Shown here piece after piece: positions 974 through 23,126 of a stretch of 64,000 bases of DNA; position 1 is the stretch's first letter, and each line of letters opens with the position of its first letter. The position numbers were made by a program, and so were the translations under genes. A model generated the notes under the pieces. The model was given only the letters and a program-made list of their open reading frames with translations, ran no database searches and was not told where the DNA came from. The DNA comes from an uncultured delta proteobacterium (GTDB taxonomy: Bacteria > Desulfobacterota > Desulfomonilia > Desulfomonilales > Desulfomonilaceae): the NCBI GenBank assembly GCA_963789265.1, contig CAWBKB010000007.1, forward strand, positions 160,001 to 224,000, in the 5' to 3' direction.

Positions 974-1201
974 GTAATCGTTCACCGCGGAGAGCGCAGA
1001 GACCGCGGAGAATTCTATTTTCTCCGAACGCTTATGCGAATTGTGTACAGCAGGTTCCGGTATGTGATCCCGCGATGCGGGGGAGGACAATGCCGACCTG
1101 ACTGTACGCGCGGTGATTGACGTGGAATTGAATAAACTATCCTTTATCTCTGCGTTCTCTGCGGACTCTGCGGTGAATCTTGAGGCCCGCTGAACGGTTA
1201 C
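974..1201. mobile_element. MITE: 11-bp TIRs GTAATCGTTCA / TGAACGGTTAC, 8-bp TSD ACAATTTG, carrying a CACCGCGGAGAGCGCAGAG-type inverted repeat pair
   Basis: ACAATTTG at 966-973 and 1202-1209; TIRs at 974-984 and 1191-1201 (1 mismatch); internal arms ~982-1010 and ~1148-1177. Confidence 0.8.
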
Positions 1202-1219
1202 ACAATTTGAATGCGGCGA

Positions 1220-2490
<1,271 letters not shown>

Positions 2491-2786
2491 TCATCCCCTG
2501 ACGCCATACGACGTGCGTTGAAGGCGCTTCATACGAGGTTATTCTGGTAAAATGAACGTCACGGTCTTGCGTTACGGTTACCGATTTGACCGACATTGTT
2601 GTAGTGGCACATGCGTTAACATAGCTCCGCGGGACGTGGGATTCCTCCCTTTTGTAAAGGGGGGTTAGGGCATCGGTGTTAAAATAGGCTCCAAGGCCTC
2701 CTCGTCCCGGAGGGTCGGCACGATAGTAGCCCGGCGATTTATCGCCCGGAATGAATGGCCAAGAGATCCTTCTTCGCCTCCGAGGG

Positions 2787-3956
2787 TCACAACCCGGCCA
2801 TTGCCCTGATTTCCTCCGCTCTGCGTGTGCTTTCCCACGTGAAATCGGGGTCTTCTCTTCCAAAGTGACCGTTCGCGGACGTTTTGTGGTATATGGGTCT
2901 TAGTAGATCCAGATATTCTATAATTCCCGCTGGCTTAAAACTGAATAGTTTTGAAACGATCTCGATGATTTTGTCATTCGGAACTTTTCCTGTGCCGTAT
3001 GTGTTCACCATTAAGGATACCGGCTCGGGGAAGCCGATGGCGTAGGCCACTTGAAGAAGACACTTCTCGGCCAAGCCTGCTGCGACTATATTCTTCGCAA
3101 CATGCCGGGCCATGTACGAGGCCGATCGGTCCACTTTGCTCGGGTCCTTGCCTGAAAAGGCACCACCGCCGTGAGCTCCGTAGCCGCCGTAAGTATCTAC
3201 GATAATCTTACGGCCGGTTAACCCGCAATCTCCCAGCGGTCCGCCCACCACGAATCTCCCTGTAGCATTAATGAGGTAACGCGTGTTCGCGTCCAGGAAT
3301 TTTGACGGAATAACTTTCTTAATGACTTCTTCTATAATGCCTTCTTTGATCTGATCATACGTGACGTCAGGGCAATGCTGAGCTGCCACGACGATGGTGT
3401 CCACCTTCTGTGGTTTTCCGTTTTCATATCGGACCGTGACTTGAGACTTCCCATCGGGTCGGAGGAAGGGAAGAATGCCTTCTTTGCGCACCTCAGTCAG
3501 CCTTTGGGTTAGCGAGTGCGCATAACTTATGGCCATGGGCATAAGTTCAGGCGTTTCGTCGCTGGCATACCCGAACATCAGTCCCTGGTCACCTGCCCCC
3601 TGCTCTCTGAACATTCCCTCACCCTCGGTAACTCCAATGGAAATGTCCGGGGACTGCTTGTCAAGAGTCACAATGACCGCGCAGGTCTCGCAGTCAAATC
3701 CCATGGACGCGTCTGTGTACCCTATTGTCCGGACAGCCTCGCGAGCCAGGTGGGGAATGTCTACGGAGGCATTTGTGGTGATCTCTCCGGCGATCATGAC
3801 GAGACCGGTAGTGACCAAGGTTTCGCAGGCAACCCTGGATTTGGGGTCCTGAGCCAGCATCGCATCGAGAACGGTATCGGATATCCTGTCGGCTATTTTA
3901 TCGGGATGGCCTTCAGTGACGGACTCGGATGAAAACAGATAACTTCTCATCCCCAT
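2787..3956 (-). CDS. metK: S-adenosylmethionine synthetase
   Basis: [33 protein letters not shown] signatures. Confidence 0.98.
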
Positions 3957-4040
3957 CAGTGAATCTCCTTTCGGCCTGGTTTTTCAAACAGAAATCTGCA
4001 CAGATAAACTGGTAGTATTAACCACATTCGCCCCCCCGCG

Positions 4041-5498
4041 TCAAGAACGAAATCGCTCTACCATGCGTATGGTTTTCCAGTACCCGGAGCGGAAACGAAG
4101 CCAGAAGATTACGCCCAACGCCACAACATAGACGAGGACCCAGCTCCAGGCGGCAAAAAGACCCGCATGAAAGTAATCGATGATCAAATAGACAGGCGGA
4201 ATGAAAAATATCCAAGCCATGAGGATTTGGGCCCACATGGCGAATCGAGTGTCTCCCGCGCCTTTCAAGGCCCCTGAGAAAACAATGAATATCGTGTCAA
4301 ACATTGAGTAAATTGCGATGAGGCGCACCAGAACGATTCCCTTGGCCAGTATTGTATCAAATCCCCGGCTGATGTGGGCGGCCGGCCTGAACATTTCCAA
4401 CAGCGAGCCGGGGACAAAGAGGTATAGTACGGCTGGTATCGCCGTATATGCCAGTGCCAGCTTCAACGCGGAATAGGTGCTCTTCTGCGCTATTTCCGGC
4501 CGGTCCCGCCCGATGTACTCGCCCACGAGGGTCGAGGCGGCAATGGACATTCCAACCATGGGGAGAAAGGCCAGCATTTCTATGCTTAGGGCAATATTTG
4601 CCGCAGCCAGATCCGCTTCTCCCAGTCGTCCCACGAGGAGAATAAACATAGTGAAGGATGCGACATCCAGGAAGAATTGCACGCCTGAGGGGGCGCCATA
4701 GCGAAGAAGCATAGAGAAAAGCCTCGGATCCCATCTGAACTCTTTTCGCGTTCTATATTGGGCCTGATATCGAGGAGACAGAAACAACACGGCCCAGTAC
4801 AAGGCAGGGATGGCCCCAGTAATTGCAGTTGCGAGACCGGCGCCCCGTATGCCCATCTCCGGAAAACCCAACTTTCCAAAAATGAGCGCGTAAGCCAACA
4901 CCAGGTTCGCTCCGTTGCCGGCGAGGTTGCCCCACATCACTACAGCGGTGCGCCCGCGGCCGGAGAAGAAGGACGACAGGGCCGCATTGAACGGGAGCAC
5001 CACCCCACCCACCATAAGAATCGAGAAATACTCTTTTTCCAGCGTGCTAACTGCGACGCCGTGGCCGCTCCATGTGAAAATAATTTTGCCTATTGGTATG
5101 CAGGCCAGGATCAGGGGAGCTGCCGCAACGGAAAAGAAGACACCTTGCCACACCGCTCGTGCGCACGCGGGTTTGTCCCCCGAGCCGTGATGCTGAGCCA
5201 CAATGGCGTTGACGTACTGGGCAGTTCCAAGGAAGATCGAACAGATCGTGAAGTAAGTGATTCCTCCCGGCGTAGCGGCTGCAACCGAGTCCTCGCCGTA
5301 CCACGAGAGGAACATCCTGTCCACGAACAGCATCATGGTCATGGATGCTGTGGACAGGATCAGGGGAAGCGCAACGCGAATGACCTCTCGGTAGCCGCCG
5401 GCTTCTATCGTAGGTCCGGAGAGTACGGCGCCTGCAATCGATTCTCGTCGGCCGTCGCCACTTTTTGAAACGAGGCGGTCGGGCTCGGAATTTCCCAT
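4041..5498 (-). CDS. MATE family efflux transporter
   Basis: About 12 hydrophobic segments; LIFGKLGFPEMGIRGAGLAT and GALKGAGDT motifs. Confidence 0.9.
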   Translation of the reverse strand: MGNSEPDRLVSKSGDGRRESIAGAVLSGPTIEAGGYREVIRVALPLILSTASMTMMLFVDRMFLSWYGEDSVAAATPGGITYFTICSIFLGTAQYVNAIVAQHHGSGDKPACARAVWQGVFFSVAAAPLILACIPIGKIIFTWSGHGVAVSTLEKEYFSILMVGGVVLPFNAALSSFFSGRGRTAVVMWGNLAGNGANLVLAYALIFGKLGFPEMGIRGAGLATAITGAIPALYWAVLFLSPRYQAQYRTRKEFRWDPRLFSMLLRYGAPSGVQFFLDVASFTMFILLVGRLGEADLAAANIALSIEMLAFLPMVGMSIAASTLVGEYIGRDRPEIAQKSTYSALKLALAYTAIPAVLYLFVPGSLLEMFRPAAHISRGFDTILAKGIVLVRLIAIYSMFDTIFIVFSGALKGAGDTRFAMWAQILMAWIFFIPPVYLIIDYFHAGLFAAWSWVLVYVVALGVIFWLRFRSGYWKTIRMVERFRS

Positions 5499-5502
5499 TG
5501 CC

Positions 5503-6111
5503 TCATTTCTTTTTCAGCTTGGAGATAAAAGATCGGATGTCTCCCAAAGCAGACGGCTTGGGTGGTCCGGAGGCTTTGCCTTTAGCCTCCTCTTCCCTGG
5601 CGGCCGCGTTCTTATGGGGACTTTTCGCCGGAGATAATTTCTTGGTTTTTTGTGAGCGCTTTCTATTCTCAGCCCTCGAATGGGCCGTCTCTTCAATCAC
5701 CTCGACCTCTATCTCTTCATCGTCCATCCCGAGATCTGTCCGACCCACAGAGTTCGACGCTGAATCTACCGATTCCTCCTGGAATGAGGGGTTGGTGGCG
5801 TCCGCGCCGCAGGCAGGACATTTCTTAAAGGGATGCGGGCTTGGATGGCTGCAGTGTCCGCAGATGAAAAGGCCCGAAAGGAATTTGGATTCCCTGGCCA
5901 AGTCTCTCTGAACCGCCACTTCCCGACGCCTGGCCAGATCGTCCGCGGTGATAAGATTTTGAGCAAGCAGCGCCTTAATTAGGCTCACGAAACCGCGTGC
6001 AGTTAGCCCGTATTTCTGCCTCAACTCATGATCTGTCAGGGTGGAGCGGAAGTCAGCAAGGAAATTGTTGAGAGGGACTTTGCCGATGCGGTCTTGAGTT
6101 CGATCAGGCAT
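5503..6111 (-). CDS. Hypothetical protein: small helical N-terminal domain plus zinc ribbon
   Basis: CGHC...CPAC pair; N-terminus resembles that of 32627..33148. Confidence 0.7.
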   Translation of the reverse strand: MPDRTQDRIGKVPLNNFLADFRSTLTDHELRQKYGLTARGFVSLIKALLAQNLITADDLARRREVAVQRDLARESKFLSGLFICGHCSHPSPHPFKKCPACGADATNPSFQEESVDSASNSVGRTDLGMDDEEIEVEVIEETAHSRAENRKRSQKTKKLSPAKSPHKNAAAREEEAKGKASGPPKPSALGDIRSFISKLKKK

Positions 6112-6293
6112 GAACTTTGGCTCGGGTTAACAGTCAGAAGACAGATTTGTCAACGTAGGACACGGGGACCACGTTCCACGCCCTGTCGTCCAGGGATTTT
6201 GAACTAGGAACACTGACTGTCTTGACGGACGGGGTTGTAGCGAGGCCACGGGGCCACTACTTGAAGCAATAGAGACGTGCGCCCCGAAAAATT

Positions 6294-6587
6294 CTACCTG
6301 GACAAGGAAGTGTTCACGGCTTTCTTCAGGACAGGTGAATACTTCCATGTCACAACTCTGCGTGCATCAAGGATCAGCTCTTCCCCGGTCTGCGGATTTC
6401 TTCCCCGCCGGGAATGCTTCGACTTCACGGTCCACTTTCCAAAGCCGGAGATCATGACGTCCTCACCGGCTATGAGCCTAGCTTTAATTATATCCAATAG
6501 CTTTTCAACTATTTCGGTTGCCTCCCCTTTCATAAATCCACAATCGTCAGCTATTTTCTTCGCGATATCAGCCTTTGTAAGAGTCAT
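6294..6587 (-). CDS. ihfA: Integration host factor subunit (alpha-like)
   Basis: MTLTKADI, VMISGFGKW, GRNPQTGE, ARRVVTWK. Confidence 0.85.
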   Translation of the reverse strand: MTLTKADIAKKIADDCGFMKGEATEIVEKLLDIIKARLIAGEDVMISGFGKWTVKSKHSRRGRNPQTGEELILDARRVVTWKYSPVLKKAVNTSLSR

Positions 6588-6735
6588 CGAAGCCCTCCCA
6601 AAAAACAAAAAACGGAATGAAATGTTTGATTATTTATAACAACCGGTGCGGCGAAAGGCAAGACATTTCTCAAACTTCCGAGAGAAAAGCCTTCGCGGGA
6701 CGATAAGAGACACCGCGGCCGGTGCTCGCCGTCTC

Positions 6736-8279
6736 TCAGCTCGCGGTCCCTTTAAGAAGTCGACCATCGTAGCCCTGACTCCTCAAAGACGCCTGCACCA
6801 TGGCAGTCATGTCCCGCGGTCTGTACATGAAGCGGATGCCCGTACTTAGCCCGAAGCTGTTCATAAGGCGAAAATAGCGCCAGTACGGACCTGGAAATCC
6901 GAGGCACTTGAAAGCGAAAACGGCCGCCCGGGAGAAAACCAGAACCCGCTCGTCAAATCCCAGATAGACCTCGGGGCAGAGTGAAGCAGCGTGGGTCATT
7001 TGATCCACCGCACGGTCGAGATCCAGGTCTTCCGACAGGTACCACAGGCTCTTCAGGGGATCGACCATGTTCGATACGAAACCATCCTTCAATGCTATAT
7101 CCCATAGAGCAGTCCCAGGGTAAACTCGGACGCCGAAGAAATAATTAGCAACGTGGGTTACAGGACGCCCCTGCTTCTGAAGGTACTTCAGGCCGAAATC
7201 AAGAGACTCCTGCAAGGTCTCGTTGGTTTCCCCGGGCCGCCGATCATGAAGAACCACCACGTTGAGAATGAAGTGCGGTTTATGGCCTCGGCCGCGCGGA
7301 TCACTTCCGCCATGGTGAAGCCCTTTTTGTAGTTTCTGAGCATCGTGTCCGAAGCGGACTCGGGGGTTATCATGAACGATTGGAACCCTGCCCGCCACAT
7401 CAGAGCCAGGTACTCGGAATCGAGCCTTCTCGGATGCATGCCCATAGCCGTGAAGTTGGCCTTCCACGGCCTTCGCGCAATCTCTTCCAGAATGGCTATT
7501 GAGTGTTCTATGGGGTCATTGAATACAGAGTCAACGAATTCAAAGCTCTTGGGATGGTACTTGAACAGAGCTTCCTCGATCTCGTCCACTACCTCAATCG
7601 GCGACCGCAGACGCAGACTGTTGCCTTCCAGGGATTGATTGTACGTACAGTAGATGCAGTGCTGTCTGCACCCGCGTTTGGTTTGGATATTGTAGCTGCT
7701 GCCGATTTTCTGGTAGGGTTTAGTGTCTATCCACCTTCCGAGATCAGGACTTCGGCTGTCGAACTTGGTCAGTTTTGGCTCGGTAAGGTGAAACTTGCCG
7801 GCAACCATACGTCCCACCCCCGGGATCTCGTCAGGAGAGCCCCCCGTCTCGATAGCCTTTATCAGCTCGACAAAAGCTTCTTCGCCGTCGGCAACTACTA
7901 TGTAGTCGGCTCCCAGAAGCTCAATCACGTTTGCAGGCATCAGGCTTGCGCCTGATCCTCCCACCACCAGCGGCACAGAGGTAATCTCTCTGATGTACTT
8001 GGTAATCTTAACAATTTCAGGCAAGTAAGTAACAGGACACAGCATGTTCACATTGTCAATATTGCGAATTGACAGTCCTATTATTTGCGGTCTGAAAGAA
8101 CCCATGTTTCTCGATAACAACTTCCTCAAATTCTTCGGGGCAAAGCATAAGTCCAATACTCTGACGTCATGACCCGCAGCTTCCGTCGCGCCGGCTACGT
8201 AGCACAAACCTAGCGGCGGAGCGGCCAACAGGTCGCCTTTCCGATTGGTATTAATTAGCAATATACGCAAGTCAACCAC
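6736..8279 (-). CDS. Cobalamin-binding radical SAM protein (frameshift near 7232 in a G/C run)
   Basis: PPLGLCYVA and IGLSIRNIDN (B12-binding domain), IQTKRGCRQHCIYC (CX3CX2C); reading continues GGPG/ETNETLQES in the overlapping ORF 6736..7467. Confidence 0.88.
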
Positions 8280-8324
8280 CCTTCTAATTATTATGTCGGG
8301 CAGGCACGGACGGGCCGGACACGG

Positions 8325-9200
8325 TCAACAAGCCTGATCTCCGGCAACTAAAGCCACAGAAACCCACGCGCCGTTATGCCGAAAAATCCTTACATAAACA
8401 GGATCTTCGGCCGACACACGCGACCATCCCAGGGTTCCTTCAGTGAGATAAGCTTTCAGCGCGGTCCTATCGTGATGCTCGGGACATGATTCCACCCGCA
8501 CGTGTAGCGGATCGATGAGATGAAATCCACAACCCAGCGCTTTCACGACAGCTTCTTTAGCCGACCAGATCATAGCCGCTGTGTCTTCCCTCTTGCCTCC
8601 GGCTTCGAGTTCGCCCTCCTGAAACACCCTTTGAAATGGGTAGTCGCCTCGAAATGAAGCAGAATGCGCTGCATCAATTCCAATGCTGAACCCTGACCGG
8701 CAAACTGCCACCCATAAGGTGTCTCCCTCGTACGCGAAGCTAACGGCTGGGAGTTCTGAGCCATCAATGAGAAGATGCGGCTTGCCCAATTTGTCGGACG
8801 TTATTTCTATTCCGGGCAGGTCTGGATTCTTTAGGTACGGGACCTCGTCCAGCATTCCCGCAATAGAGACCCAAAGAGAAGACACTGCTGCCTGCTTGGC
8901 CCAACTGCGCCGCTTCCTGTCCCGGCCGGTGAAATGCAATCTGAAACCGGCGCACAATATCTCCGGATCGCAGTACGAGAACTCCAGAGTTAGAGCCGCT
9001 AGGCGCTCGGCCGCCCCTTGACTTGATAAGTGTTCAGCCGTCATCTGGTAGCCGGCAGCAACGCCGGTACTACTGTGAGACCGGTAGGATCGGCCTCTGT
9101 GCCGGTCATCGTAGGGTCGGCGTCCTTTCGAGCCGCTTTCCGGGCAAACGGTGGTCGCGTCGGAGATCTGCTTGGTCGCCAGTGCTGGGACGACGATCAT
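8325..9200 (-). CDS. 4'-phosphopantetheinyl transferase (Sfp-like)
   Basis: GKP, IGID, WSAKEAVVKALG. Start uncertain: ATGA overlap with the PKS stop at 9200, or 9044. Confidence 0.88.
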   Translation of the reverse strand: MIVVPALATKQISDATTVCPESGSKGRRPYDDRHRGRSYRSHSSTGVAAGYQMTAEHLSSQGAAERLAALTLEFSYCDPEILCAGFRLHFTGRDRKRRSWAKQAAVSSLWVSIAGMLDEVPYLKNPDLPGIEITSDKLGKPHLLIDGSELPAVSFAYEGDTLWVAVCRSGFSIGIDAAHSASFRGDYPFQRVFQEGELEAGGKREDTAAMIWSAKEAVVKALGCGFHLIDPLHVRVESCPEHHDRTALKAYLTEGTLGWSRVSAEDPVYVRIFRHNGAWVSVALVAGDQAC

Positions 9201-12200
9201 TTGGAAAACCATCGCATCATAATGTTCTTCGCTTGCATCACAACTGTTCCGTGCTCATCGAGGGCTCGCGCGTTCCAGCTTATTCCTTCGGCGTTTTGAT
9301 TCTGCATTAGCGCCTCGATGGTGATTCTTTCACCGTCTGAGCATTTTCTCAAGAACTGCATCTCGCCAATCCTATATGGAATCATGGATCGCTTCTCCGA
9401 CGGGTTCCTCATTACAATGTAGAAATTCACCACCTGCATGAGGGCCTCCAGGAGATAAGGTGAGTATTGGTACCGCGTCTGCAACGGATCTGCGAAGTCA
9501 CGGACTTTTCGATAGATCATCCGCCCGCGAATAGTTCGAGAGGAAGTGCCGTTCAAATCTTCGATCACCCGGTACCTGCCACGCAAATCAGTGCGGTCCT
9601 GATACCACTGTATCACCTCGTTACAATCCATAGGCCGGCTGTCCAGCTCATCCAGTCTCACAGGAAAACCGGGAAGTTTCTCCACTTGAAAGGGGCTTGT
9701 TCCCCGAAGCAGCACGAGAGCTTTATAATTTGCGTGAATTCGCTCCATGACCCGCCCTGACGGCGAAATTTCCCTGCTGGCAAGACTGACTTCGCAGACC
9801 ACCTCACCCGGAGAAGCATGTACGCGGCGGCAAGAAATTTCCGAAGATCTTGTGACGCCCGGTGGGCAATCAATGATCTCCAAGAACTGAGCGTCCCGAA
9901 TCCCTCGAACTTCGAGGTAAGGATACAGCACGCGAGCAGCCTCCATGAAGGTCTCCAGAGCCATAATCGCGGATACTAACGGGTGTCTTAGAAACTTGAA
10001 GGGCTTGTGGTCCTGAATCCACAAGTCCTTTTTCAGCGTAAATGACCGAGAGGCTTGAAGATCCCCCTTCAGCATGTCGACCCGCGAGATCGTTTCGATC
10101 ATCGGCAGATCTTCAGGCATAAACGCGACAGTGCCGGCTTCGATCTTGCCGGGCCCGGGCGTGACCTCTTCGGCATCGAGCAGGTACCTGTACTAAGATC
10201 GGGCAATGAGCGCATAAACAGAACCCAAACGTCCTGGGGCGGCGCCACGAAGACTTCACGGCAAAAGAGTCCTGCAAGCTCATGAGCGTGGATGTAACCG
10301 GCCTTCATGCGTTTCATGAGTGCTTTGATATCCGGATCTTCCGCCATGCCGGCCCCCTTGATGGGAGGCAACATCAGAGCTTTGAATCGTATTGACTGAT
10401 CCCGGTGGCGAAGCTGCGCCATTAATGCTGACATCAGCCTGTTTCCGGCGGAATAATTCGCCTGGCCCGGATTTCCCTGAATCGCGGCCGCCGACGAAAG
10501 GCAGGCAAAGAACTTCAAGCACTGCTTCTCTACCGCCGCGTAGAGATTCCAGGCACCCAGGAATTTGACGTCCACGGCTGCGGAGAAGTCGTCGGGGCTC
10601 ATCTGTTTTGCAAAATTGTCCCTGAGAATTCCTGCGCCATGAACGATTCCGTCGATTTTCCCGTAGCGTTCGATGATTTCTCGTACAACGGTTCCGACCT
10701 CCTCAGGATCGGTCACGTCGCACTTGAAGTACGTCGCTTCTATGCCCGACGATTGCAAATCTTCGAGGGTACGGACTATCTCCGTCGCCTTGGAAATCTT
10801 CGAAGTCTCTCGTCCTCGTTCCACATCCGACAGGCCGGGGCCGCGGGCTGCAACCGAATTGCCGATCGCTTCTTCCAACCGAGTTTTCTCGGACATGACT
10901 TGGTGGGAATCGGCATCGAGCGCAGTCCTCCCCAAAAAGATCATCTTGCACCCAAAGGGGACTAGGCTGCGAGCCAGAAAGGAAGTTACGCCGTATCCAC
11001 CGCCGGAAAAAACCACAACGTCTTCCGGTCCAAGTTCCAATGCGTCGGAATCCTGAAAAACCGATTGCGCACACACACCCCTGCGAGAAAAGGATTCTCC
11101 ATCTCGATAAATAGTCTCAATAACCTTCTGACCTCGATCCAGCGATCCGCGAATCGCATCTCTCAATTCGCTTTTCTCATAGAGTCGCACTGAGCGGAAC
11201 TGAACAGACCCAAACTCATGTGCCATGCTGAGAAACATCCCAAGCAATCCTTCGGCCAGCAGCCCCCCGGCGCCTTCGGTTCGATCGGTCTTGTGAAGAA
11301 GCAAAACGAACTTCTTTGCAGGGGATTCCAGGAAGGTCTTTAATGAGCAGAAAAATCCCTTGAGCAGGCGAGAAACATCCTGCACGCTCAGTTGCTTGGT
11401 AGCGGGCGCGTCATCCACTATGAAGACCATTCCCGCCAGGGCTTCAATCTGGCCGATCCGTCTAGCGGCCTTCGACGCTCCATCATCGGCGCGAATATCG
11501 AATTCCTTCCCGTCTTGGCCCATTCCACCTTCCACAAAGGTCAACGGAACAATATTTACCCCATAGTCCCGGCGAAAGACGTCTCCTGTGATTTTGCGAA
11601 GCTCGGTCCCGCTGGTGGGGGAAAAGATGGCCACTGATTCGAGCGGACTTAGCTCGATCAACTGAATAGGGCCGGCTTCCACAGGGATTTCTCTGAAAAC
11701 CAGCCTACGTATGCTCTGAGTCTCTTCGGACATCTCCGGTGCTGTCTGTTCCTCCGACTGAGCAGAAGGCGCGCCGGTCTTTGCAACCGGCCGCGCCTGC
11801 TCCGACCGGGTCACTACCTCGGCTATTCGATCGGAAATGTCCTTGACAGTCCGCACATCCATGAAATCTTCAAGCTCGATCTTGATCCCAAAGTGGCTCT
11901 CTACTGCATCCATGATGACGGGCAGACGGCTGGAACGTATCGAGAGGTCTTCTCTCAGGTCCATGTCCGGCTCGATCTCATCCCTTTCGTAGCCAGTGGC
12001 CTCCATAATTATTCGGATAACGGTCTCGGTGCCATCAACACTTTCCGGTTCAACCATAGGTACATTGCCCGCGGCCCGGACTGTCGACGAGAGTTGTCCC
12101 GGTACCGCGGGAACCAGGGGCGTGGCCTCCGTTGCAGGGCTTGCAGGAAGAACCACGTGTGTACCCATGCCTGGAAACATTTGCCCAAGTACTCCATCCA

Positions 12201-15200
12201 GGCTCTCCTCAGAGAATTGAGGATCATGATCCCGGCGAATTGCCGCCAAAAGGTTTGGCTTAAGAAACCTTCCGAAACTTTCCATAATGAAAGCGTTGAT
12301 CTCTCGCTGGACGATATAGGACAGAGATCCGGAACCGTCGGAAAACTCGCGCCTTGCGGCTCTCTCGGGGACCAACTGAGCCGGCTGTACCGCCCCATCG
12401 GGCTTGCCGAGCGACACGAACTTGACAGGCCCACGTACCGGGAGGTTGCCCATCGCATATAGTTGAGCGAGCGCGGTCCTGTACACCGTCGGCTCAGCCG
12501 AAGGTAGGCAAGTTTGAATGCATTCCGCCTCTTCGATGCAGTCAGCTATCAAATTACTCAAAATTGCCCGGGGCCCCACTTCCACGAAGAGTCGCACGCC
12601 ATAATCGTCCCAGAGCGTTTGAACGTTTTGCATCCAGTGCACCGGTGACTCTAGATGGGCCATGACAATGGCCTTTATCTCACTACTACCCTCGGGATAC
12701 GGTTGCATTGTGGTGTTGGAAATCACCGGAATTTGAGGGGGATGAAATTCAATGCCGGCGATAAACTCTTCTAATTCGTCATGAATGCACCTCATGATAG
12801 GGGAGTGGAACGCCATGCTGACTCTCAGCAAGGTATTGCGATAGCCCAACTCCTTTAGCTCCGTCCCCATTGATTTCACTGCTTCGGTGTCCCCTCCGAC
12901 TACAAGTTGATGCGGCGAATTGATGTTGGTTATGTACACGTGCTCCCGCCGGCTCATCAGCTCTTCAAGGACATCCATAGGCGCGTCCACGGCCATCATC
13001 ACGCCTGGATCCACATTTATTTCGCAGGCTTTGTCCATGCATATCGCCCGCATATTGACGATACGAAAACCGTCCTCAAAGGAATAGACGCCCGCAAGAC
13101 ACAGGGCCGTCAGTTCGCCCAAGCTGTGCCCGGCCAGGGCTTGAGGGCTGATTCCCAGAGAGACGAGATGCTGCACCATGGCGTATTCCATGGTGAAGAG
13201 CGCAGGTTGTTGCCAACGGGTCTTCTGCAGATCTTCCTCCCGGTCGTGGAACAACAACTGCAAAAGGTCGAAGTCCGCCACTTCTGCGGCCCGATCCATC
13301 CATTCACGGATGACGGGGAAGGTCTGATAGAGTTCATGCCCCATCCCCGCATAGTGAGAGCCCTGCCCCGGAAAAACAAAAGCAAGGGGCGGGGTTGGCA
13401 GATCCTCGACGCCAAGATGAATTCCCTCCCGCGCCAGCGCCTTGAGACGCTTCGACGGAATTGGGCCGCCGTTTATGAGGGACTCGGCGCGCTGGATGCG
13501 AGCAATAGCCTCAGATTCGGAATCCGCGGCTGTGGATATTCGATAAGGCGTTTCACCAATTACAGTTCTGAAGAAGTGGATCCCCTGGGGAGTGAAATCG
13601 CTGCCATTCGGCTTTGGGGCTCCCTGCTCGAGAGGCAATGTCAGAATGCTATCCTGTTGATCCATAGCTTGCTCCACCTGCACCACGTAATTAGACCCCC
13701 CGAAGCCGAAAGCATTTACCTGGAGACGTCGCGGATCGCCATTTCTCAGCTTCCAATCGGCCGGCTCCGAATGAATCGCCAGCCGTGAGCCCTCTATTCC
13801 CATTTCCGGATCGGGATTCTTGTAATTGAGTGTTGGCGGGAAAATGCCGGCCTTCATTGCCATGATGCCTCTTATGAGAGAGTTGATGCCGGAAGCACCC
13901 AGAGTATGCCCGATTTGAGATTTGAATGAGGTTATCACTGTGCCCCGGCCTGAATCGAAGAAGCTCCGGAGCGCCCGCACCTCTTCCACGTCCCCTTGAC
14001 GAGTGCTGGTGGCATGGCATTCAATCAGGTCCACTCCATCAGGGCCGTAAGTGGTGTCCTTGAAGGAAGATTGTATGGCGATTTCCTGAGTTATTCTCGA
14101 TGACTCAACCATGCCGAGATTATTGTTGCTGGCCCCCATCGACGTGATGTACGCATGGGCTTTGGCCCCTCTCTTGCGGGCCACAGACTCTCTTTCAATC
14201 ACTATCATCCCACCGCCCTCGCCCAAAACCATCCCGTCCCGGTCCGAGTCGAAGGGGCGGCTGGTCTCGCAAGCGGGCCGGTCAACCCCCGAAAGACCGG
14301 CAAGAGCGCCAAGAGCTGAGAATTCCAGAAAATGCATTGGAGTGAGGTATTCCTCGGCCCCTCCAACGATTGCAGCATCGATGATCCCGTTCTTGATCAT
14401 CTGAACCGCACTGTAAAGCGCCACAAGAGCGGTTGCGCACGCGGCGGAGACCGAAAAACTCGGCCCCATGAAGCCGTACCGGTTGCAAATGAAACCGCCG
14501 GCCGAGCAATTTAGCCTACCCAGAAGAGTTGTGTCGTCTATGGCTATGCGGCCCGCTTTGACCTCCTCTTCGATGGCCTTTTCCGTCTCCGGCGTAAGCT
14601 GTAGGACTCTCTTCACCGCGGACACAATCTTGCCCAATGACCCACGGATTATCACGTCCTGTAAGGTCACGGCCGCTTCCCCGGAGTTTTGAGAAATCAG
14701 CACCGCGATGCGTTCCTGCGGTATACCGGATTCAAGAATCCCGGATTCCTCGATTGCTTTGCCTGCGAGCCACATCGTGATCTTCGTGGAATCGGTCATG
14801 GTCCTGAAATCTTGCGGAGGAATCCCGATCTCCTTACGCGAAACCTCGATGTTTTGAAATGCCCCGACCTTGCAATAGGTCTTTTCCGAGACTCGAGGAC
14901 GCGGATGAAAAAAGAGTGCATGATCCCACCTGGATTTCGGCACCGGGACTATCCCACTCTTCATGGAAAGTGATGCGGCCCAGACCTCTTCGGGGCTGTT
15001 CCCGAGAGAATTGACCACACTCATCCCGGTGATGGCTATTCGTTCTTCATTGGGCTCATGATAAACCGGTGCAGGCGTACGCGGGCGCTTCCATTCCGGT
15101 GCTTCTCTGCCAATCTCCTCCTTGCTCGGACGGAGCGGAGAGACTTGGCGAATCGGACTCACTACAGGTAAACCAAGGGCCAGTGGCGCTTCCGCCAGTT

Positions 15201-17209
15201 CTCGGTGCAGTTCCTCAATGGTGCAAATGTTCGTCAACGTACCCGGCACACGCGCCGCTCATAAACTGGCCTTGATCCAGGCAAGAAGACTCATCCAGGG
15301 TCGTGCCGCCGGGCCTATCCAACCCACGGGCCGCGGTGAACAGGCTTCCCGCGCTCAAGGCTTCAATTTTGTTACGAAATGATGACTCATTCTCAGATCC
15401 TGCGGCAAATTCTCGTTCCAGTGAACAAATCGCCTCGATCTTCGCGGTCTTCAAAGAACGAACTCGCAGGCCGGTCCCTTCACCCGTCACTATAGTTCCT
15501 TCCGGCGCGGACTCCAGGATCATGCGCTGATACAGCTTTGTCAGCGCCCCGGTTTCAACCATTTCGGCGGTGGTCAGGTATGAGGTACCCATCTGAACGG
15601 CATCTGCTCCGAGCATCGCAGCAATGAAAGCGGTTTCCCGGTTGCAGATCCCGCCTGCCAGTATGATCCTACGCCCTTCGAACAAGGATGGGTTCCGTTC
15701 TTTCAGATCGACAACGGTCTGGGCCAGAGTCAGTGTGCTGTGCTGTCCTACGTGGCCGCCCGCTTCATGCCCTTCGCAAATGACGTACCGGATGCCCGCG
15801 TCAAGGGCCAGGCTCACCAGTTCTTCGGAAGGAGCTATGTAAATCGTTTCGACGCCCTCTTCCTTCAGCGCCGCGGCGTGGGACGGTTCACCAGCCGCAA
15901 TGACGGCAAATTTCGGTTTTATCTTTTTGATCCAGGCCAGTTGAATATCACGGCAAGGGTTTTCCGAGAGTGTAATGACGTTGACCGCATAGGGTCGGTC
16001 GCCCATTATCTCGGACATGCGCCCGAACTTCTTGTCGAGCGTTTCTCCGTCCATCAGGCCCAGTGCGATGGTGGGGAGGCCGCCGGCTTCGGAGACCTTG
16101 AGGGCAAATTCCGGGACATCGGTGATCCAGGACATCGCCCCCTGCACGAACGGATATCGCGTGCCGATTTCCTTCGCCAAAGGGCTGTTAACAAATGCCT
16201 TTTCCTTGTCCACCGCCGCGGCACAGCAGGCGTCGATGTTGCGGATAAAGCTATCCAGAGCCTCGCCCGTGTCGGAACCGAAGCGTCTGACAAAGGATGC
16301 AGCAAAGGAGGCTTCGACGCCCAGCGGTAACAGTTCTTCCCGACCAAACGAGCTTTCCAGCGGATTACTAGCCTCATCCATGATCTTCCGGGCAAAGAAA
16401 CGCCGTTGTTCGTCACGGATCTCGGAGCCACAGAGAGATCCGGCAAAGGATTTCAAATCCCGCACAGCCCGCGAATTGCCCTTGTTAAAGAGACGACAGG
16501 GCACCCCGAGGTTCAATCCCGTCAGATCGGTATGGTCCGGTCGGAGATTAGATATGCGCCGGCGAACGTCATCGTGGGCTGACATCAGATCTGTCAGCCA
16601 GTGAAGGCTCTCGAATACGATCCCCCGGGCACCCGCGGACAAGAAAGCCGCCGCGGCCTCGGGCGTTGCGATGCCTCCCCAGACGACCGAACCGGGTTGC
16701 TCGCTCCTGTCCCGTATTAAGGCCCGCACTGCGCCATACAAGGTGAGCGTCGTTTCAGTACTTGTAAATCCGGAAGCTTCGTTCCCTTTGAGCGCGATAT
16801 TTCTTATGCCGGGGTGCTTGTCGAGGACGCTTGATATCAGATTGACGGACCCCATCACAGGGACAACGTCGAAATGGCCCGTCAGATCTTCCATGCGCTT
16901 CAGGACATGCTCGGGATTCTCCTCCAGGAGGATGGGATGGAGTTCGACCCAGACTCTCTCGATACCCATCTCGTCCAGGAATTCTTCCAGCCCGCGATCC
17001 ATAAGAAAAGTCGGGGAAATCTTGAGGTCAACCGCATCACGAGCGGCATCGGACTGCAAAAGCGCGGTGCCGGCCGATTCCGGTTGGATCGTCGATAGGT
17101 CGAATATCGCTTGAGTCTTTGTGCTGCGGGCGGTTTCGACAACTGAGGAGGTGATCTCTTTTGGGGGCCATACAAAAGCAATTATGGGACTCGTATGGTC
17201 GGCAGTCAT
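9197..17209 (-). CDS. Iterative type I PKS/FAS, ER-KS-AT-ACP-KR-DH; probably one gene split by frameshifts near 15242 and 10188
   Basis: FabK/PfaD-like ER (EGHEAGGH, LAGGI); KS (VSAACAT, ECHATST, IGHTLG, NAFGFGG); AT (FPGQGS, GHSLG, AFHS); ACP (DLREDLSIRSS); KR (GGGYG, HGAG, YSAGN); DH (WIQDHKPF). The three ORFs overlap and join with 1-2 nt corrections. Confidence 0.85.
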
Positions 17210-17329
17210 CTATTACCTCTCAATTATGATCGTTACAGAAACTAATAATATAACATATTTTATCGTTACGGGAAGCCAAAAACAACTCGGCTGCCGCCGG
17301 CGTGCTTGAAAGCCGGTGCAGGTCAGCTT

Positions 17330-17539
17330 GGAACCATTCACTTACGGTGGGACTTTTCTGTCCCTTGTCATTGCAAGGAGTGCATGGTGGGACAGGCTTC
17401 CAGCCTGTCTATTGGGGATGACGGGCAAGATGCCCGTCCCGCCGGCAATCTAAGCGGCGTTCAAAGGAAAAGATTGCTTCGTCCCGCGGGAGGCGGGACT
17501 CGCAATGACAATCTCTTGCCGCGCCAAGTGAATGGTTAC
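17330..17539. mobile_element. MITE of the same TIR family as 974..1201, with nested REP-like hairpins
   Basis: TIRs GGAACCATTCACTT / AAGTGAATGGTTAC; flanks GTCAGCTT (17322-17329) and GTCGGCTT (17540-17547), a 7/8 TSD. Confidence 0.7.
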
Positions 17540-17883
17540 GTCGGCTTGGATCATGCCGTATTCATTCCGGGCAGTATTATGGCTACAGCCGTTGCCATAT
17601 CGAGTGTCACATCTGCAATATCTTGGTGCGTCGCGCTTTGTCAGAGCCGAAATTGAAACGATCGGGCCTCCAACGGGAACAAAGATTGCCTCTCTGCACT
17701 CGTAATAACATACGGCGGGTTCCGATATTCTAGCGAAACCCGCTGTATAATTGATTAAGGGCGCTTTTCCCTTGCAGGAAATGTCCTGGTGTTTTAAAGT
17801 TAGGAATTGGTTATGAAACCGGGGGGCAGAATTTCATCCGGATTCAGACCGAGAATCACAAATTAGTACGTTGGAGGATTATC

Positions 17884-18972
17884 ATGGGGCCTATGAAAGT
17901 ACTACTCACCGGGGCCACCGGCTTCCTGGGGGAGTATCTTCTGGCAGAATTGCTGGAGCGAGGGCATAGCGTCTGGGCGCTCTATCGGAGCGAATCGCGC
18001 AAGCTGGATACCATCCATTATTTGAGCCGAATGGGCCTTCCTCGGAGTTCAGGCAGTCTGCGCTGGTTCAAAGGGGAAGTCCTTGACGCGGACAGTCAAT
18101 GGGATAACTGGTGCCGAGATTGTGAGGGGCTTGAGCAAGTGGATACACTGCTCCACAGTGCAGCCGCAACAAGGCTTCACATGGATGCAACCGGTGAGCC
18201 TCTCAGGACCAATCTGGGCGGAGCCAAGGCGTTTCGTAGACTGGTGGACCGCAAACCCATGAACGTCCACTTGATAAGCACAGCTTATGTATGTGGTTAT
18301 ATTCACGGTCGAATGATGAAGGAAGTCAACCACCCCAGAGGGGATTTTGTAAACGTTTACGAAGAGAGCAAATGGGAGGCCGAACAGATCTGGATGGGGG
18401 ATGCGACCATACTGCGGCCATCGATCATTGTCGGTGACTCGGAGACCGGAAGGTGCAATTCTTTCGGCGGCTGGTACATTCTCTTCCAGGCAGTACATCT
18501 CCTTGACAGGCTTATGCGCGATGCAGATGCCTCCAATCGCCTGGGTTTGCAGCTCAATGTTCCGGCCGATGCAAACGGGACCACAAACATCATTACTGTG
18601 GATTCTCTGGCCAAAGAGGCCATCCGCATCATAGAAAATCCCGCCAATCACAAGAAGATCTTTCACCTCAGCCATCCTGACCCGCCCACGCATCAGTGGA
18701 CTCTGGACTTCATCTGCAACAGATTCAATGTTGGAGGTTTCAACTTTGCCGGAGCAAACGCGCCGTTTACTCAACCCCGCAACAGGATTGAGCGAATGGT
18801 TTGGCGGCAGATGCAGACCATTCTCCTTCACTTTTCCAACAACCCTTCCTTTGACCGAACCAACACCGACGCTGCTGTCCCCGATCTAAAGCCTGTGCCG
18901 ATCACCGAGGAGTTGGCCGGCAAGCTGCTTGATTACGCGATAGCCTGCGACTGGGGTCAGGGGTGCCAGTAG
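17884..18972 (+). CDS. Extended SDR, thioester-reductase/fatty acyl reductase-like (NAD_binding_4 type)
   Basis: LLTGATGFLG, HSAA, ISTAYV, YEESK, LRPSIIVG. Confidence 0.8.
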   Translation: MGPMKVLLTGATGFLGEYLLAELLERGHSVWALYRSESRKLDTIHYLSRMGLPRSSGSLRWFKGEVLDADSQWDNWCRDCEGLEQVDTLLHSAAATRLHMDATGEPLRTNLGGAKAFRRLVDRKPMNVHLISTAYVCGYIHGRMMKEVNHPRGDFVNVYEESKWEAEQIWMGDATILRPSIIVGDSETGRCNSFGGWYILFQAVHLLDRLMRDADASNRLGLQLNVPADANGTTNIITVDSLAKEAIRIIENPANHKKIFHLSHPDPPTHQWTLDFICNRFNVGGFNFAGANAPFTQPRNRIERMVWRQMQTILLHFSNNPSFDRTNTDAAVPDLKPVPITEELAGKLLDYAIACDWGQGCQ

Positions 18973-18987
18973 GTTCGGAGAATTACC

Positions 18988-19803
18988 ATGAACGACTCGT
19001 ACGTGCACGGTTATGACCCGCGGGAGAGCGTGCGCTTGCAGGACCAGGCCGGAACGCTGGTGGATCTCCTCCATTCGGACACGTCCTACCCTGAGGGCAG
19101 CATTGTCCTGGAGGCCGGGTGTGGTGTCGGCGCTCAAACGCTCACGCTCGCCCGACACAGTCCGGGTGCACGAATCATTTCGGTTGACGTGTCAGCGGCC
19201 TCCATCGCGGAAGCCAAGTCCAGAGCGGACGCGGCCGGCCTTACCAATGTGGAGTTCCGGCAAGGGGACATCTTCGCTTTACCCTTTGACCCGGAATCGT
19301 TCGACCACCTCTTCGTCTGTTTCGTCCTGGAGCACCTCTCGCGGCCGGTGGAGGCTTTGTCCACACTCAAGAAGCTGCTCAAGCCGGGCGGTACGATCAC
19401 GGCCATCGAGGGGGACCATGGGTCGGCCTATTTCCATCCGGACAGCGATGCAGCCCGCAGAGCAATCCGATGCCAGGTCGAGTTGCAGGCCGCGGCCGGC
19501 GGCAACGCATTGATCGGGCGGCAGCTTTATCCTCTGCTGGTCGAGGCGGGTTTCGACCAAGTCCGCGTTTCCCCACGCATGGTGTACGTGGATTGGAGCA
19601 GGCCGAATCTAGTTGACGGCTTCACGAAGAAAACGTTCACTGCGATGATCGAGGGCGTTCGTGAATCCGCGATCCAGGCCGGCATGTTAGAGCCCGAGGT
19701 TTTCGATGCCGGCATCCACGACCTTTACAGAACGGCTGAAGCAGATGGTGTATTCTGCTACACGTTTTTCAAGGCTGTGGGCGAAAAGGCTACTCTCGGC
19801 TGA
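18988..19803 (+). CDS. Class I SAM-dependent methyltransferase
   Basis: VLEAGCGVG, ISVD, GDIFALPF, FVLEHL, LKPGG. Confidence 0.9.
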   Translation: MNDSYVHGYDPRESVRLQDQAGTLVDLLHSDTSYPEGSIVLEAGCGVGAQTLTLARHSPGARIISVDVSAASIAEAKSRADAAGLTNVEFRQGDIFALPFDPESFDHLFVCFVLEHLSRPVEALSTLKKLLKPGGTITAIEGDHGSAYFHPDSDAARRAIRCQVELQAAAGGNALIGRQLYPLLVEAGFDQVRVSPRMVYVDWSRPNLVDGFTKKTFTAMIEGVRESAIQAGMLEPEVFDAGIHDLYRTAEADGVFCYTFFKAVGEKATLG

Positions 19804-19888
19804 CAGCGGAATCAAGTTTGCGGTAGGTCGGGCCGTGCCCCATGCAAACTGGTGCAAATCGTGACGCGGACCACCCGAGGCGACCCCG

Positions 19889-20479
19889 ATGAGCGATGAA
19901 CGGATATCGGAATTACTGGCTTTTGCCAGATGGCTGGGAATCGGCGACGCAAAACTGCTGGGGGTTGACCGGATAAAGGTGGAAGATCGCTTCCGCAGCC
20001 AGTGCGCAGAGCCGCGCTGCCCTAATTACAATACTTCGATCAATTGCCCGCCGCACTCGATGACGCCCGGTTGGTTTCGAGAACACATCAAGGGGTTCAA
20101 TCTCGTCTTGGCCTTCAAGTTCGACATGCCTATGGAAGCCGTGAATGGAATAGAGCGGCGGGAGGCTTCATTGCTTTTGCACGAGACAACCGCGGCCATC
20201 GAGCACAAAGCCCGGTCGCTGGGATTCGAGCGCGCCCGCGGCTACTCATCGGGAGCCTGCAAGAAAACACTCTGTTACGAACACGCAGATTGTGCGGCGC
20301 TTCAGGACGGCGGCGAGTGCCGTCATTCGGACAAGGCACGGCCTTCACTTTCCGGCATGGGCGTAAATTGGTACGAATTATCAATATTCCTTGGTTGGTC
20401 GATGCAGAAGAACGAAGACGGGGATCTAAACCCCAGATCCGAAACCGTTATGATGGCCGGCCTGGTGTTCCTTGAGTGA
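19889..20479 (+). CDS. DUF2284-like Cys-rich metal-binding protein
   Basis: C...CPNY...CPP, GACKK.LC, CRH..ARPSLSGMGV pattern. Confidence 0.75.
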   Translation: MSDERISELLAFARWLGIGDAKLLGVDRIKVEDRFRSQCAEPRCPNYNTSINCPPHSMTPGWFREHIKGFNLVLAFKFDMPMEAVNGIERREASLLLHETTAAIEHKARSLGFERARGYSSGACKKTLCYEHADCAALQDGGECRHSDKARPSLSGMGVNWYELSIFLGWSMQKNEDGDLNPRSETVMMAGLVFLE

Positions 20480-20514
20480 TGCAGTTCCGATGCCACCGTA
20501 CTGAATCGAGCTTG

Positions 20515-20763
20515 CGGTAGGTCGGGCCGTGCCCGAAGTCCCGCGTTCGCGCATGGGCGTTAAGATAACGATTTATTCCCCCCTTTCGTAAAGGGGGGCC
20601 AGGGGGGATTTTGGGATAACTCATTGAAAATCCCCCTAAATCCCCCTTTAGAAAAGGGGGACTTTGATCGCTCTCGGCCTGCATTCACCTCTTGAAAGGG
20701 AACGAAATTGCCTTAACTTAACGCGAATGCACGTTCGCGGGAGCGGCCACGGGCCGCCCTACG
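20515..20763. repeat. REP-like pair (CGGTAGGTCGGGCCGTGCCC ... CACGGGCCGCCCTAC) interrupted by a MITE at 20551..20730
   Basis: Related arms near 19821, 24485, 27583, 28756, 36382 and 40420. Inner element has TIRs GCATGGGCGTTAAG / CTTAACGCGAATGC, flanks GCGTTCGC / ACGTTCGC, and CCCCCTTT..AAAGGGGG hairpins. Confidence 0.75.
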
Positions 20764-22853: not shown

Positions 22854-22864
22854 GATCTACTACC

Positions 22865-23124
22865 AAAGTGACATTATACAGCGTTAGACCTAATAAGATT
22901 AGGACTTCCAGTGCAACATGTCAACGTCAGCGCGTGGTATATATACTATGCCCTCGTATCCCTAAAGTAACATCATACAGCGTTAGACCTAATAAGATTA
23001 GGACTTCCAGTGCAAAAAAGTAAGCTAATGATATAGTATATATACTATATCATTTGTCAGTCTTTTTTCCTTCTTGACTTGCCCGGTAACCTTGTCGTAT
23101 ATATACGACAAGGTTACCGGGCAA
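22865..23124. promoter_or_regulatory. Divergent promoter region with a 41-bp direct repeat and three GTATATATAC-centred palindromes
   Basis: Identical 41-mers at 22876-22916 and 22975-23015; perfect palindromes at 23027-23054 (28 bp) and 23079-23124 (46 bp); a third core near 22937. Confidence 0.8.
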
Positions 23125-23126
23125 CG

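Follow-up and report, generated by a model that had tools for sequence, protein, structure and literature searches.

We analysed a 64,000-nucleotide stretch of DNA (hereafter the window) from an uncultured member of the Desulfomonilaceae (GenBank assembly GCA_963789265.1, contig CAWBKB010000007.1, positions 160,001-224,000, forward strand), whose genome assembly comprises 6.06 Mb in 9 contigs. The window contains a gene cluster built around a giant protein of the polyketide synthase/fatty acid synthase (PKS/FAS) type, here called the megasynthase, and a radical S-adenosylmethionine (SAM) enzyme with a B12-binding domain, here called the rSAM enzyme. On balance, and with modest conviction, we favour the view that the cluster is an operon for a specialised long-chain lipid, in which an iterative, fully reducing synthase would build a chain that is tailored by the rSAM enzyme, released reductively and exported. 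Positions 6736-17209 hold six minus-strand open reading frames (ORFs): 15215-17209 (664 aa), 10099-15249 (1716 aa), 9197-10120 (307 aa), 8325-9212 (295 aa), 7188-8279 (363 aa) and 6736-7467 (243 aa). With the frame corrections described below, these ORFs and the genes beside them give the following features (values are E-values unless marked as bits).

17884..18972, plus strand, divergent: stand-alone thioester reductase of 362 aa, extended short-chain dehydrogenase/reductase type (SDR-e); PF07993 1.4e-23; motifs GATGFLG and YxxSK (YEESK)
9197..17209, minus strand: megasynthase, 2669 aa after removal of three surplus bases, with pseudo-enoyl reductase (pseudo-ER), enoyl reductase (ER), ketosynthase (KS), acyltransferase (AT), acyl carrier protein (ACP), ketoreductase (KR) and dehydratase (DH)
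16190..17209, minus strand: pseudo-ER, a diverged FabK-fold TIM barrel, residues 1-340; recognised by hhalign, an AlphaFold 2 (AF2) model and motif loss
15150..16189, minus strand: FabK-type FMN enoyl reductase; PF03060 4.1e-29; EAGGH and GAMSW intact; frame break at 15242 near the C-terminal end
13822..15045, minus strand: ketosynthase; PF00109 and PF02801; Cys-His-His triad in AACAT, CHATST and GHTLGASG
12508..13380, minus strand: FabD-like acyltransferase; PF00698 2.1e-47; TIGR00128 (fabD) 222.8 bits; GHSLG and MAFHS
11824..12024, minus strand: single ACP; PF00550 7.5e-08 over one stretch; conserved DLSIRSSR
10306..10785, minus strand: catalytic subdomain of the ketoreductase; PF08659 1.6e-32; GGGxG, YAAGN and LRD
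9197..10100, minus strand: PKS-type dehydratase, double hotdog; PF14765 6.6e-10; frame break at 10184/10187 just upstream
8325..9212, minus strand: Sfp-type phosphopantetheinyl transferase (PPTase); PF01648 5.5e-10 over residues 176-263 of 295; start overlaps the end of the megasynthase gene
6736..8279, minus strand: B12-binding radical SAM gene; PF02310 7.3e-18 and PF04055 1.4e-13; broken near 7230
5503..6111, minus strand: small protein of 202 aa with a helical N terminus, a CxxC...CxxC zinc-ribbon-like element and a Lys-rich tail; translationally coupled to the next gene
4041..5498, minus strand: MATE-family transporter; PF01554; TIGR00797 212 bits, above its cut-off

Pfam searches of the three megasynthase ORFs placed an NMO/FabK-type ER in the first, KS, AT, one PP-binding domain and KR in the second and a PS-DH domain in the third. 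The intact orthologue L024 has the same series in one chain (ER 346-671, KS 722-1130, AT 1279-1568, ACP 1734-1800, KR 2134-2292, DH 2534-2675), its DH matching PF14765 at 1.1e-10. The catalytic motifs of KS, AT and KR and the unusual ACP motif DLSIRSSR are kept in 18 orthologues and in the window, and the MAFHS/AFHS motif of the acyltransferase we take to be of the malonyl type. In alignments, the C-terminal 300 residues have an invariant His in Hx8P and an invariant Glu in the second half, which fits a double-hotdog dehydratase; against the PDB this domain finds weak matches only, to FabZ and to the CurJ DH. The ER scores 161 bits on the FabK family TIGR03151 (cut-off 453, not reached) versus 29.6 bits on the PfaD family TIGR02814 (cut-off 449), and it is a domain of the megasynthase, not a free FabK. 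Among the proteins of the window cluster, Pfam and NCBIfam searches detected no thioesterase, no second KS and no chain-length factor (CLF). The ORFs, the domain searches and the restored 2669-residue frame thus bear out the preliminary description, made from the DNA letters, of one ER-first protein of ~2670 residues with one ACP, no CLF and no thioesterase.

Are the frame breaks genuine? In five intact orthologues from the same family (L024-L028), the megasynthase is a single ORF of 2665-2693 aa, and single ORFs of 2526-2813 aa occur in 29 of 80 related loci (the sample is defined below). When the five were aligned to the window by tblastn, the megasynthase breaks fell at ~15242 and at 10171-10192, with zero residues lost. 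Among three public sequencing runs, X1 contains 63 % of the sampled words of positions 7100-15400; X2 gives 8 short pieces, none at a break, and X3 one piece, of 90-95 % likeness, from another organism. The X1 contigs (a single one per break, at depths of 3.6 and 4.87, from a run that may be the sample behind the assembly) have one base fewer than the window at 15242 and one fewer each at 10184 and 10187, exactly at the break points. Removing these three surplus bases opens a frame from 17209 to the stop at 9197 that encodes 2669 residues. Thus, the two megasynthase breaks, for which the preliminary description had assumed "two small corrections", are assembly errors. A third break, absent from the preliminary description, lies in the rSAM gene: the orthologues change frame at ~7227-7236 of the window, which is one base short in a G run near 7230 (six of six alignments, with four same-genus genomes). 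This break is probably an assembly error too; positions 7100-7376 lie outside the contigs of all three runs.

All these breaks are single-base changes in short base runs, which would fit a long-read assembly, and an error-prone assembly is further supported because the S-adenosylhomocysteine (SAH) hydrolase gene of the window and a paralogous megasynthase on another contig of the same genome, the latter with two frame breaks, are damaged as well. That the cluster is instead decaying, with real breaks and pseudogenes in this strain, is very improbable. Three breaks do fall within ~10.5 kb, and the same-genus assemblies G002 and G006 likewise have split megasynthase frames; however, the X1 contigs give an intact frame at both megasynthase breaks, every break is a single-base change without loss of residues, the SAH hydrolase gene is broken in the same manner, and orthologues that are only 52-66 % identical to the window nevertheless keep single uninterrupted frames. 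Split megasynthase genes in long-contig metagenome assemblies may be assembly errors, and a read check is advisable before they are called pseudogenes.

The N-terminal region had been described as an apparently doubled FMN-barrel ER, and profile, database and structural comparisons confirm the doubling. Pfam returned zero matches to residues 1-340 of the megasynthase. A profile of this region built from 12 orthologues aligned with the ER-domain profile in hhalign (87.7 %, E 3.4e-6, 143 columns) and with the solved FabK 9pl0 (E 3.7e-5). Folded alone with AF2, the region reached a predicted local distance difference test score (pLDDT) of 87.1, and the model superposed on 9pl0 with Z 23.2 and a root mean square deviation (rmsd) of 3.7 Å over 297/314 residues at 16 % identity. 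The second barrel matched FabK in the PDB at E 1.7e-39, and its model superposed on 2z6i with Z 36.0 and rmsd 2.5 Å over 313 residues. In this live ER, GAMSW (motif I, with its Met) and EAGGH (motif III) are invariant; in the alignment of the first barrel, motif I is unrecognisable and EAGGH has become EA[SA]GF. The xEAGGH motif III carries the proposed catalytic His (PMC13311796, in the part available). Thus, without motif I and the motif III His, the first barrel is, to judge from its residues, a catalytically degenerate pseudo-ER. Because ER domains work as dimers (PMC13311796 describes a thraustochytrid synthase in which two different ERs form a pair) and because a model of the two barrels together reached a predicted template modelling score (pTM) of 0.90, the dead barrel may act as an in-chain dimer partner of the live ER, replacing the usual homodimer. 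We also considered the pseudo-ER as a docking site for the rSAM enzyme, a role that is unlikely because a second megasynthase of the same genome keeps its pseudo-ER and has no rSAM gene beside it. The tandem of dead and live FabK barrels at the N terminus is the new architectural feature of this synthase.

The preliminary description had placed a PPTase and a B12-dependent radical SAM enzyme after the megasynthase, and both are found there by ORF and Pfam analysis. The PPTase has the ACPS-superfamily domain, the size (~230-290 aa) and the position beside a carrier protein of an Sfp-type enzyme; its true start is possibly a later Met. Orthologues have 267-284 residues. The rSAM orthologues are 503-521 residues long and combine an N-terminal B12-binding domain with a radical SAM core, the sequence signature of class B; the cysteines of the CxxxCxxC motif (C204, C208, C211) are invariant in 10 sequences. 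They share a conserved C-terminal extension of ~90 residues that is absent from a paralogue in the same genome. TIGR04072, which the preliminary description had named as a lipid-associated family, was checked with its hidden Markov model. The two pieces in the window score 272.2 bits (model positions 1-334) and 33.8 bits (332-408), as parts of one protein, and the intact orthologues L022 and L024 reach 317.6 and 313.6 bits. TIGR04072 is therefore the best-scoring family, in line with that description, and membership is not supported, since 313-318 bits fall below the cut-off of 360. BzaD (178-196 bits) and TsrM-type enzymes (129-132 bits) come next, and HpnR has only 73-79 bits. The genome is unusually rich in B12-radical SAM genes, with 28 places that match TIGR04072 below its cut-off. 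One of these, C1:982731-983978 (281.8 bits), was examined as a second TIGR04072-like gene and set aside, as its neighbours are thiamine and racemase genes and give it no lipid context.

The closest solved structure by sequence is the tryptophan methyltransferase TsrM (6wte; E 2.2e-47, residues 3-393). In TsrM, Arg69 lies under the cobalt and favours methyl transfer, and Glu273, a ligand of the unique iron, prevents radical chemistry (PMC9204698, in the part available). The alignment equates G65-x-T67-x-R69 of TsrM with an invariant G-x-S-x-R, and D271-S272-E273 with D-S-V. Because the cluster-blocking Glu is replaced by Val, the rSAM enzyme can probably cleave SAM; and because the TsrM-like cobalamin environment is kept and the block on SAM cleavage is gone, radical C-methylation via methylcobalamin would be its most likely reaction. 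Most characterised class B enzymes are methylases, as described in PMC9204698, and B12-radical SAM enzymes are also described to perform cyclisation, ring contraction and dehydration (PMC9204698, PMC13459092).

How could the product leave a synthase that has no thioesterase? The divergent reductase, which like the MATE gene had been overlooked in the preliminary description, scores 83.9 bits on TIGR01746 (cut-off 213) and has both GATGFLG and YEESK. Its best PDB match is the terminal reductase of MxaA (4.8e-07), with AusA also matched; both are terminal reductase domains of PKS or nonribosomal peptide synthetase (NRPS) enzymes. This reductase should supply the release step in place of a thioesterase, which predicts an aldehyde or alcohol instead of an acid. 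The MATE protein is the probable exporter of the product. The small protein coupled to it has no Pfam or NCBIfam match. Promoter and terminator scans of positions 1000-20600 gave counts at the level of shuffled sequence (11 vs 10.9 and 20 vs 19.6) and are uninformative on the limits of the operon.

To follow the cluster in relatives, we collected rSAM homologues with one genome per species and took the best 80 of 160 as loci; they come from genomes labelled Desulfomonilaceae, Desulfomonile, Desulfomonilales, and "Syntrophaceae" or Syntrophobacteraceae metagenome-assembled genomes. By rSAM identity to the L024 orthologue they were divided into group A (at least 59 %, n = 50) and group B (less, n = 30). 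In group A, the DH end of a megasynthase lies directly upstream of the rSAM gene on the same strand in 41 of the 46 loci with at least 3 kb of upstream sequence, so that the synteny of rSAM and PKS assumed in the preliminary description is retained in relatives; it is also the lipid-gene context expected of TIGR04072, of type I and not type II. The full set of seven domains occurs in 32 of 37 loci whose upstream flank reaches at least 9 kb; 28 of these 32 also have the divergent reductase. The PPTase occurs in 33 of the 41 loci with a DH just upstream of the rSAM gene; downstream, where at least 3.5 kb of flank is available, the MATE gene is found in 23 of 37 loci and the gene for the small 202-aa protein in 17 of 37. 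In group B (rSAM identity 51-58 %, same C-terminal extension), the gene mostly stands alone, with a DH upstream in 1 of 22 loci; in L094 it directly follows rpsF-rplI-dnaB (10001-11512). Group-B loci give no clue to the rSAM substrate. On a quick maximum-likelihood tree of 70 rSAM rows (11 of the 80 were left out for an internal stop in the extended frame or a length below 430 aa), PKS linkage requires 4 label changes versus 23.2 in shuffles, and none of 500 shuffles was as low. This reflects clustering and not independent events, because related sequences share labels by descent.

Genome surveys agree on a narrow distribution. The rSAM orthologue occurs in 23 of 24 family genomes and in 1 of 16 genomes of the sister family (there a 30 % paralogue), and the pseudo-ER gives the same counts, 23 of 24 and 1 of 16. 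When 301 genomes were sampled evenly across the phylum, the pseudo-ER was found in 10, the source genome included: in 6 of 6 genomes of the family, in 2 of 8 and 1 of 9 of two other families and nowhere else. Among 1.84 billion representative proteins, 76 match the pseudo-ER at E <= 1e-30; full-length matches are 2437-2678 aa long, and in most the match starts within the first ten residues. The operon is intact, vertically conserved and confined almost entirely to the Desulfomonilaceae.

The second pseudo-ER-first megasynthase of the source genome (L116 6442-14678, minus strand; C1, ~687.4-695.7 kb) is 41-69 % identical to the first per domain. It has no rSAM, reductase or PPTase gene alongside; its neighbours encode an adenylate-cyclase/AAA/TPR protein and a beta-lactamase-family hydrolase. 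A third synthase was observed on C5 (L117 ~400-8908, minus strand), with an NMO-type ER followed by KS and AT, a KS-like match and a KR downstream and a TetR gene upstream; it is possibly a more Pfa-like system.

Taken together, how might the pathway run? The PPTase would convert the single ACP to its holo form, and the megasynthase would then iterate with malonyl units through full KR-DH-ER cycles to a mostly saturated acyl-ACP, its dead pseudo-ER barrel paired with the live ER. The rSAM enzyme would modify the chain, most likely by C-methylation via methylcobalamin, either on the ACP or after release. The reductase would free the thioester from the ACP as an aldehyde or alcohol in place of a thioesterase, and the MATE protein would export the product. 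The lipid may be "methyl-branched, cyclised or cross-linked", as the preliminary description put it. A bolder version, which we consider rather unlikely, has the rSAM enzyme act in trans on the ACP-bound chain in mid-cycle, as a cobalamin-dependent equivalent of the jawsamycin enzyme Jaw5. It would attack an sp2 carbon of enoyl or beta-keto intermediates, much as its relatives TsrM and BzaD do with aromatic carbon, and would set methyl branches (with repeated action, ethyl or quaternary ones) or small rings at regular intervals. Reductive release and export would then yield a long-chain alcohol that is cyclised or repeatedly branched.

Several observations weigh against a rSAM-tailored, exported lipid. 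Five of the 46 group-A loci (L044, L068, L069, L072, L099) have no megasynthase beside the rSAM gene, and three of these (L068, L069, L072) keep a reductase-(PPTase)-rSAM arrangement without a PKS; the genomes of these three also carry a full cluster. In L068 (4353-12980), genes for a GT2 glycosyltransferase and a protein of the sulfatase family flank the reductase and rSAM genes, a hint of glycosylation or head-group modification of the product. Eight of 41 loci have no PPTase, 14 of 37 have no MATE gene, and the paralogous pseudo-ER megasynthase of the source genome has no adjoining rSAM gene. The rSAM break near 7230 is covered by no sequencing run, and the read evidence for the other two consists of single low-depth contigs, possibly from the assembly's own sample. 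Neither the rSAM enzyme nor the reductase reaches the curated cut-off of its nearest NCBIfam family, and the characterised enzymes closest to the former, TsrM and BzaD, have aromatic sp2 carbons and not lipids as their targets. Since class B enzymes also catalyse cyclisation, ring contraction and dehydration, methylation is no more than their most frequent outcome. Both the product and the chemistry are predictions from the genes.

Besides pseudogene decay, three other explanations deserve attention. The core of the proposal could hold with a rSAM enzyme that is not a methylase and instead forms C-C bonds (ring closure, cross-linking or ladderane-like chemistry) or acts like Jaw5 within the cycle on ACP-bound enoyl intermediates; we consider this unlikely and still give it real weight. 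Its nearest family, TIGR04072, is built around B12-radical SAM enzymes from lipid clusters of ladderane producers (Kuste2803, PMC2649909), cyclisation has been proposed for enzymes of this type (PMC13459092), and an iterative PKS with a radical SAM enzyme working in-cycle is known from jawsamycin (PMC13459092); TsrM and BzaD, moreover, attack an sp2 carbon such as an enoyl-ACP offers. The TIGR04072 score, however, lies under the cut-off, and matches at this level are unspecific, since the gene at 281.8 bits sits amid thiamine genes. Most characterised class B enzymes methylate (PMC9204698), polyene precursors are disfavoured by the live ER and the complete reducing loop, and Jaw5 is HemN-like, not a B12 enzyme. 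A Pfa-type polyunsaturated fatty acid or olefin synthase is scarcely credible. TIGR02813 (PfaA) is among the best NCBIfam matches at 439 bits, and the order KS-AT-ACP-KR-DH is that of PfaA; this score is nevertheless far under the cut-off of 1010. The megasynthase of the window and its L024 orthologue each have a single ACP and a single KS, with neither a CLF nor a dehydratase/isomerase of the FabA type, no PfaC-like gene was found in the window cluster or beside L024, each group-A cluster has a single KS match, and the ER is of the FabK and not the PfaD type.

Alternatively, the megasynthase could be a housekeeping type I FAS, the family's main source of fatty acids beside a type II system without a dehydratase, with the rSAM enzyme and reductase as side branches. 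None of the 41 genomes of the class that were examined has a FabZ match above the cut-off (9 in a 14-genome control do), and FabA was not found in the source genome, where the sole PF07977 match has 23 bits. All FAS activities are united in the megasynthase, which 23 of 24 family genomes encode, and a similar idea was raised by Shulse and Allen about the Type S genes of Desulfobacterium autotrophicum (PMC3098273, in the part available). Yet the sister family also has no FabZ and carries the megasynthase in only 1 of 16 genomes; the class must therefore dehydrate in another way. The source genome has a full-scoring FabF (592 bits) and, on C6 (L118 1255-3021, minus strand), a 588-residue protein that matches FabMG-type enoyl reductases and ends in the genome's only FabA-like hotdog. 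This protein may be a non-canonical reductase-dehydratase fusion for type II fatty acid synthesis and could thus serve the type II system. The operon, furthermore, encodes no acyl transfer to CoA or glycerol phosphate, and a releasing reductase, an exporter and a rSAM enzyme are hallmarks of specialised products. A housekeeping role is improbable on these grounds, and we retain the operon for a specialised, rSAM-tailored lipid as our working model.

Anaerobes of the Desulfomonilaceae are common in soils, sediments and groundwater, and the operon occurs in almost all genomes of the family. If it makes a long-chain alcohol with branches or other modifications, this would identify the genes behind a lipid that is specific to the lineage and could be used as a biomarker. 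"Signature" branched long-chain lipids, among them hydroxy acids, were reportedly found in Desulfomonile by Ringelberg et al. in 1994; should the rSAM enzyme act in mid-cycle, its product could account for them and would be a possible source of orphan branched alkanes in anoxic sediments. The model would also give a first function to a lipid-linked B12-radical SAM enzyme from the neighbourhood of TIGR04072, a family discussed for ladderane synthesis; TsrM, the nearest solved relative, works without radicals, and the present enzyme lacks that block. Finally, a compact, self-contained chain builder with a tandem dead/live ER could be of use for engineered branched fuels and lubricants.

Further genes flank the cluster on both sides.

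2787-3956, minus strand: SAM synthetase (MetK), a conserved neighbour
1220-2475, minus strand: SAH hydrolase (SahH), a conserved neighbour; frame-broken at ~2116-2149 relative to an intact 417-aa orthologue
18988-20479, plus strand: SAM methyltransferase, then a DUF2284 metal-binding protein; weak NCBIfam likeness to arsenite-methyltransferase/DUF2284 fusions

MetK and SahH possibly supply cofactor, and the split in the SAH hydrolase gene is most likely another assembly error. The idea that the two form a dedicated SAM-recycling pair was not borne out: each follows the cluster in only 13 of the 31 group-A loci whose downstream flank is at least 6.5 kb, and the window metK (586.7 bits) may be a mere housekeeping gene, because the genome has a second copy that scores lower (376.5 bits). 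We likewise rejected the methyltransferase and DUF2284 genes as part of the system, as they accompany 0 and 1 of the 80 related loci, respectively. Beyond them, an AbiEii toxin/AbiEi antitoxin pair (21058-22853, minus strand) lies at the edge of a stretch of lower G+C content (~22000-30000; 0.46-0.50 vs ~0.54), possibly a mobile or defence island.

How does the operon compare with known systems? In the literature searched (subscription journals and bioRxiv supplements lay outside it), we found no account of this operon and no characterised pathway that it matches, and none of the papers listed describes an ER-first bacterial synthase with a rSAM partner. The swf genes (SwfA, SwfB, SwfC) of sponge symbionts and Poribacteria, as far as the available part of PMC3908369 goes, also combine a single-module iterative type I PKS/FAS with a thioester reductase and a B12-radical SAM enzyme, likewise have no thioesterase and make an uncharacterised product; even the poribacterial SwfA is split by a suspected sequencing error. 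The order of SwfA, however, is KS-AT-DH-ER-KR-ACP, in contrast to pseudo-ER-ER-KS-AT-ACP-KR-DH here, and the swf reductase is fused to a sulfotransferase, whereas ours is a stand-alone protein of 362 residues with no sulfotransferase. SwfC has been placed beside HpnP; the rSAM enzyme of the window is nearest to TIGR04072, BzaD and TsrM, which sets the two apart by description. Among the Pfa-like secondary lipid synthases, Type J (an ER gene, then KS-MAT-ACP3-KR) also has an ER ahead of a PfaA-like protein, and these synthases share with the present one a PPTase, an occurrence in deltaproteobacterial lineages and uncharacterised products (PMC3098273). As described in the accessible text of that source, Type J has tandem ACPs and no rSAM gene; here the ER is fused, belongs to the FabK and not the PfaD type and follows a dead copy of itself, and the synthase has one ACP, no pfaC-like KS-CLF-DH, and rSAM and reductase partners.

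At the level of single domains and enzymes, both barrels have the TIM-barrel FMN fold of FabK and of ERb/ERc of the thraustochytrid PUFA synthase (Z 36.0 and 23.2; PMC13311796). Unlike the ERb/ERc heterodimer, they stand in tandem in one chain, the first without motif I and the motif III His. Kuste2803-type members of TIGR04072, from anammox lipid clusters, have the N-terminal B12 domain, rSAM core and lipid context in common with the present enzyme, but their partners are type II FabF, FabZ and ACP proteins in place of a type I megasynthase; the group is discussed for ladderane rings, a reaction that is proposed only (PMC2649909, PMC13459092, in the parts available). TsrM, a tryptophan C2-methyltransferase (6wte), shares the Gly-x-Ser/Thr-x-Arg motif with its Arg under the cobalt and differs in substrate class and in Glu273, which is Val in the rSAM enzyme (PMC9204698). 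In jawsamycin synthesis (Jaw4, Jaw5, Jaw6), a chain made by an iterative type I PKS is likewise tailored by a radical SAM enzyme; according to the available portion of PMC13459092, however, Jaw5 belongs to the HemN-like enzymes (class C) and has no B12 domain, full reduction by an ER is missing from Jaw4, and the pathway yields a cyclopropanated acyl nucleoside. As far as the genes show, these comparisons support the assignment of the operon as a candidate PKS/FAS-like secondary lipid synthase with radical SAM tailoring.

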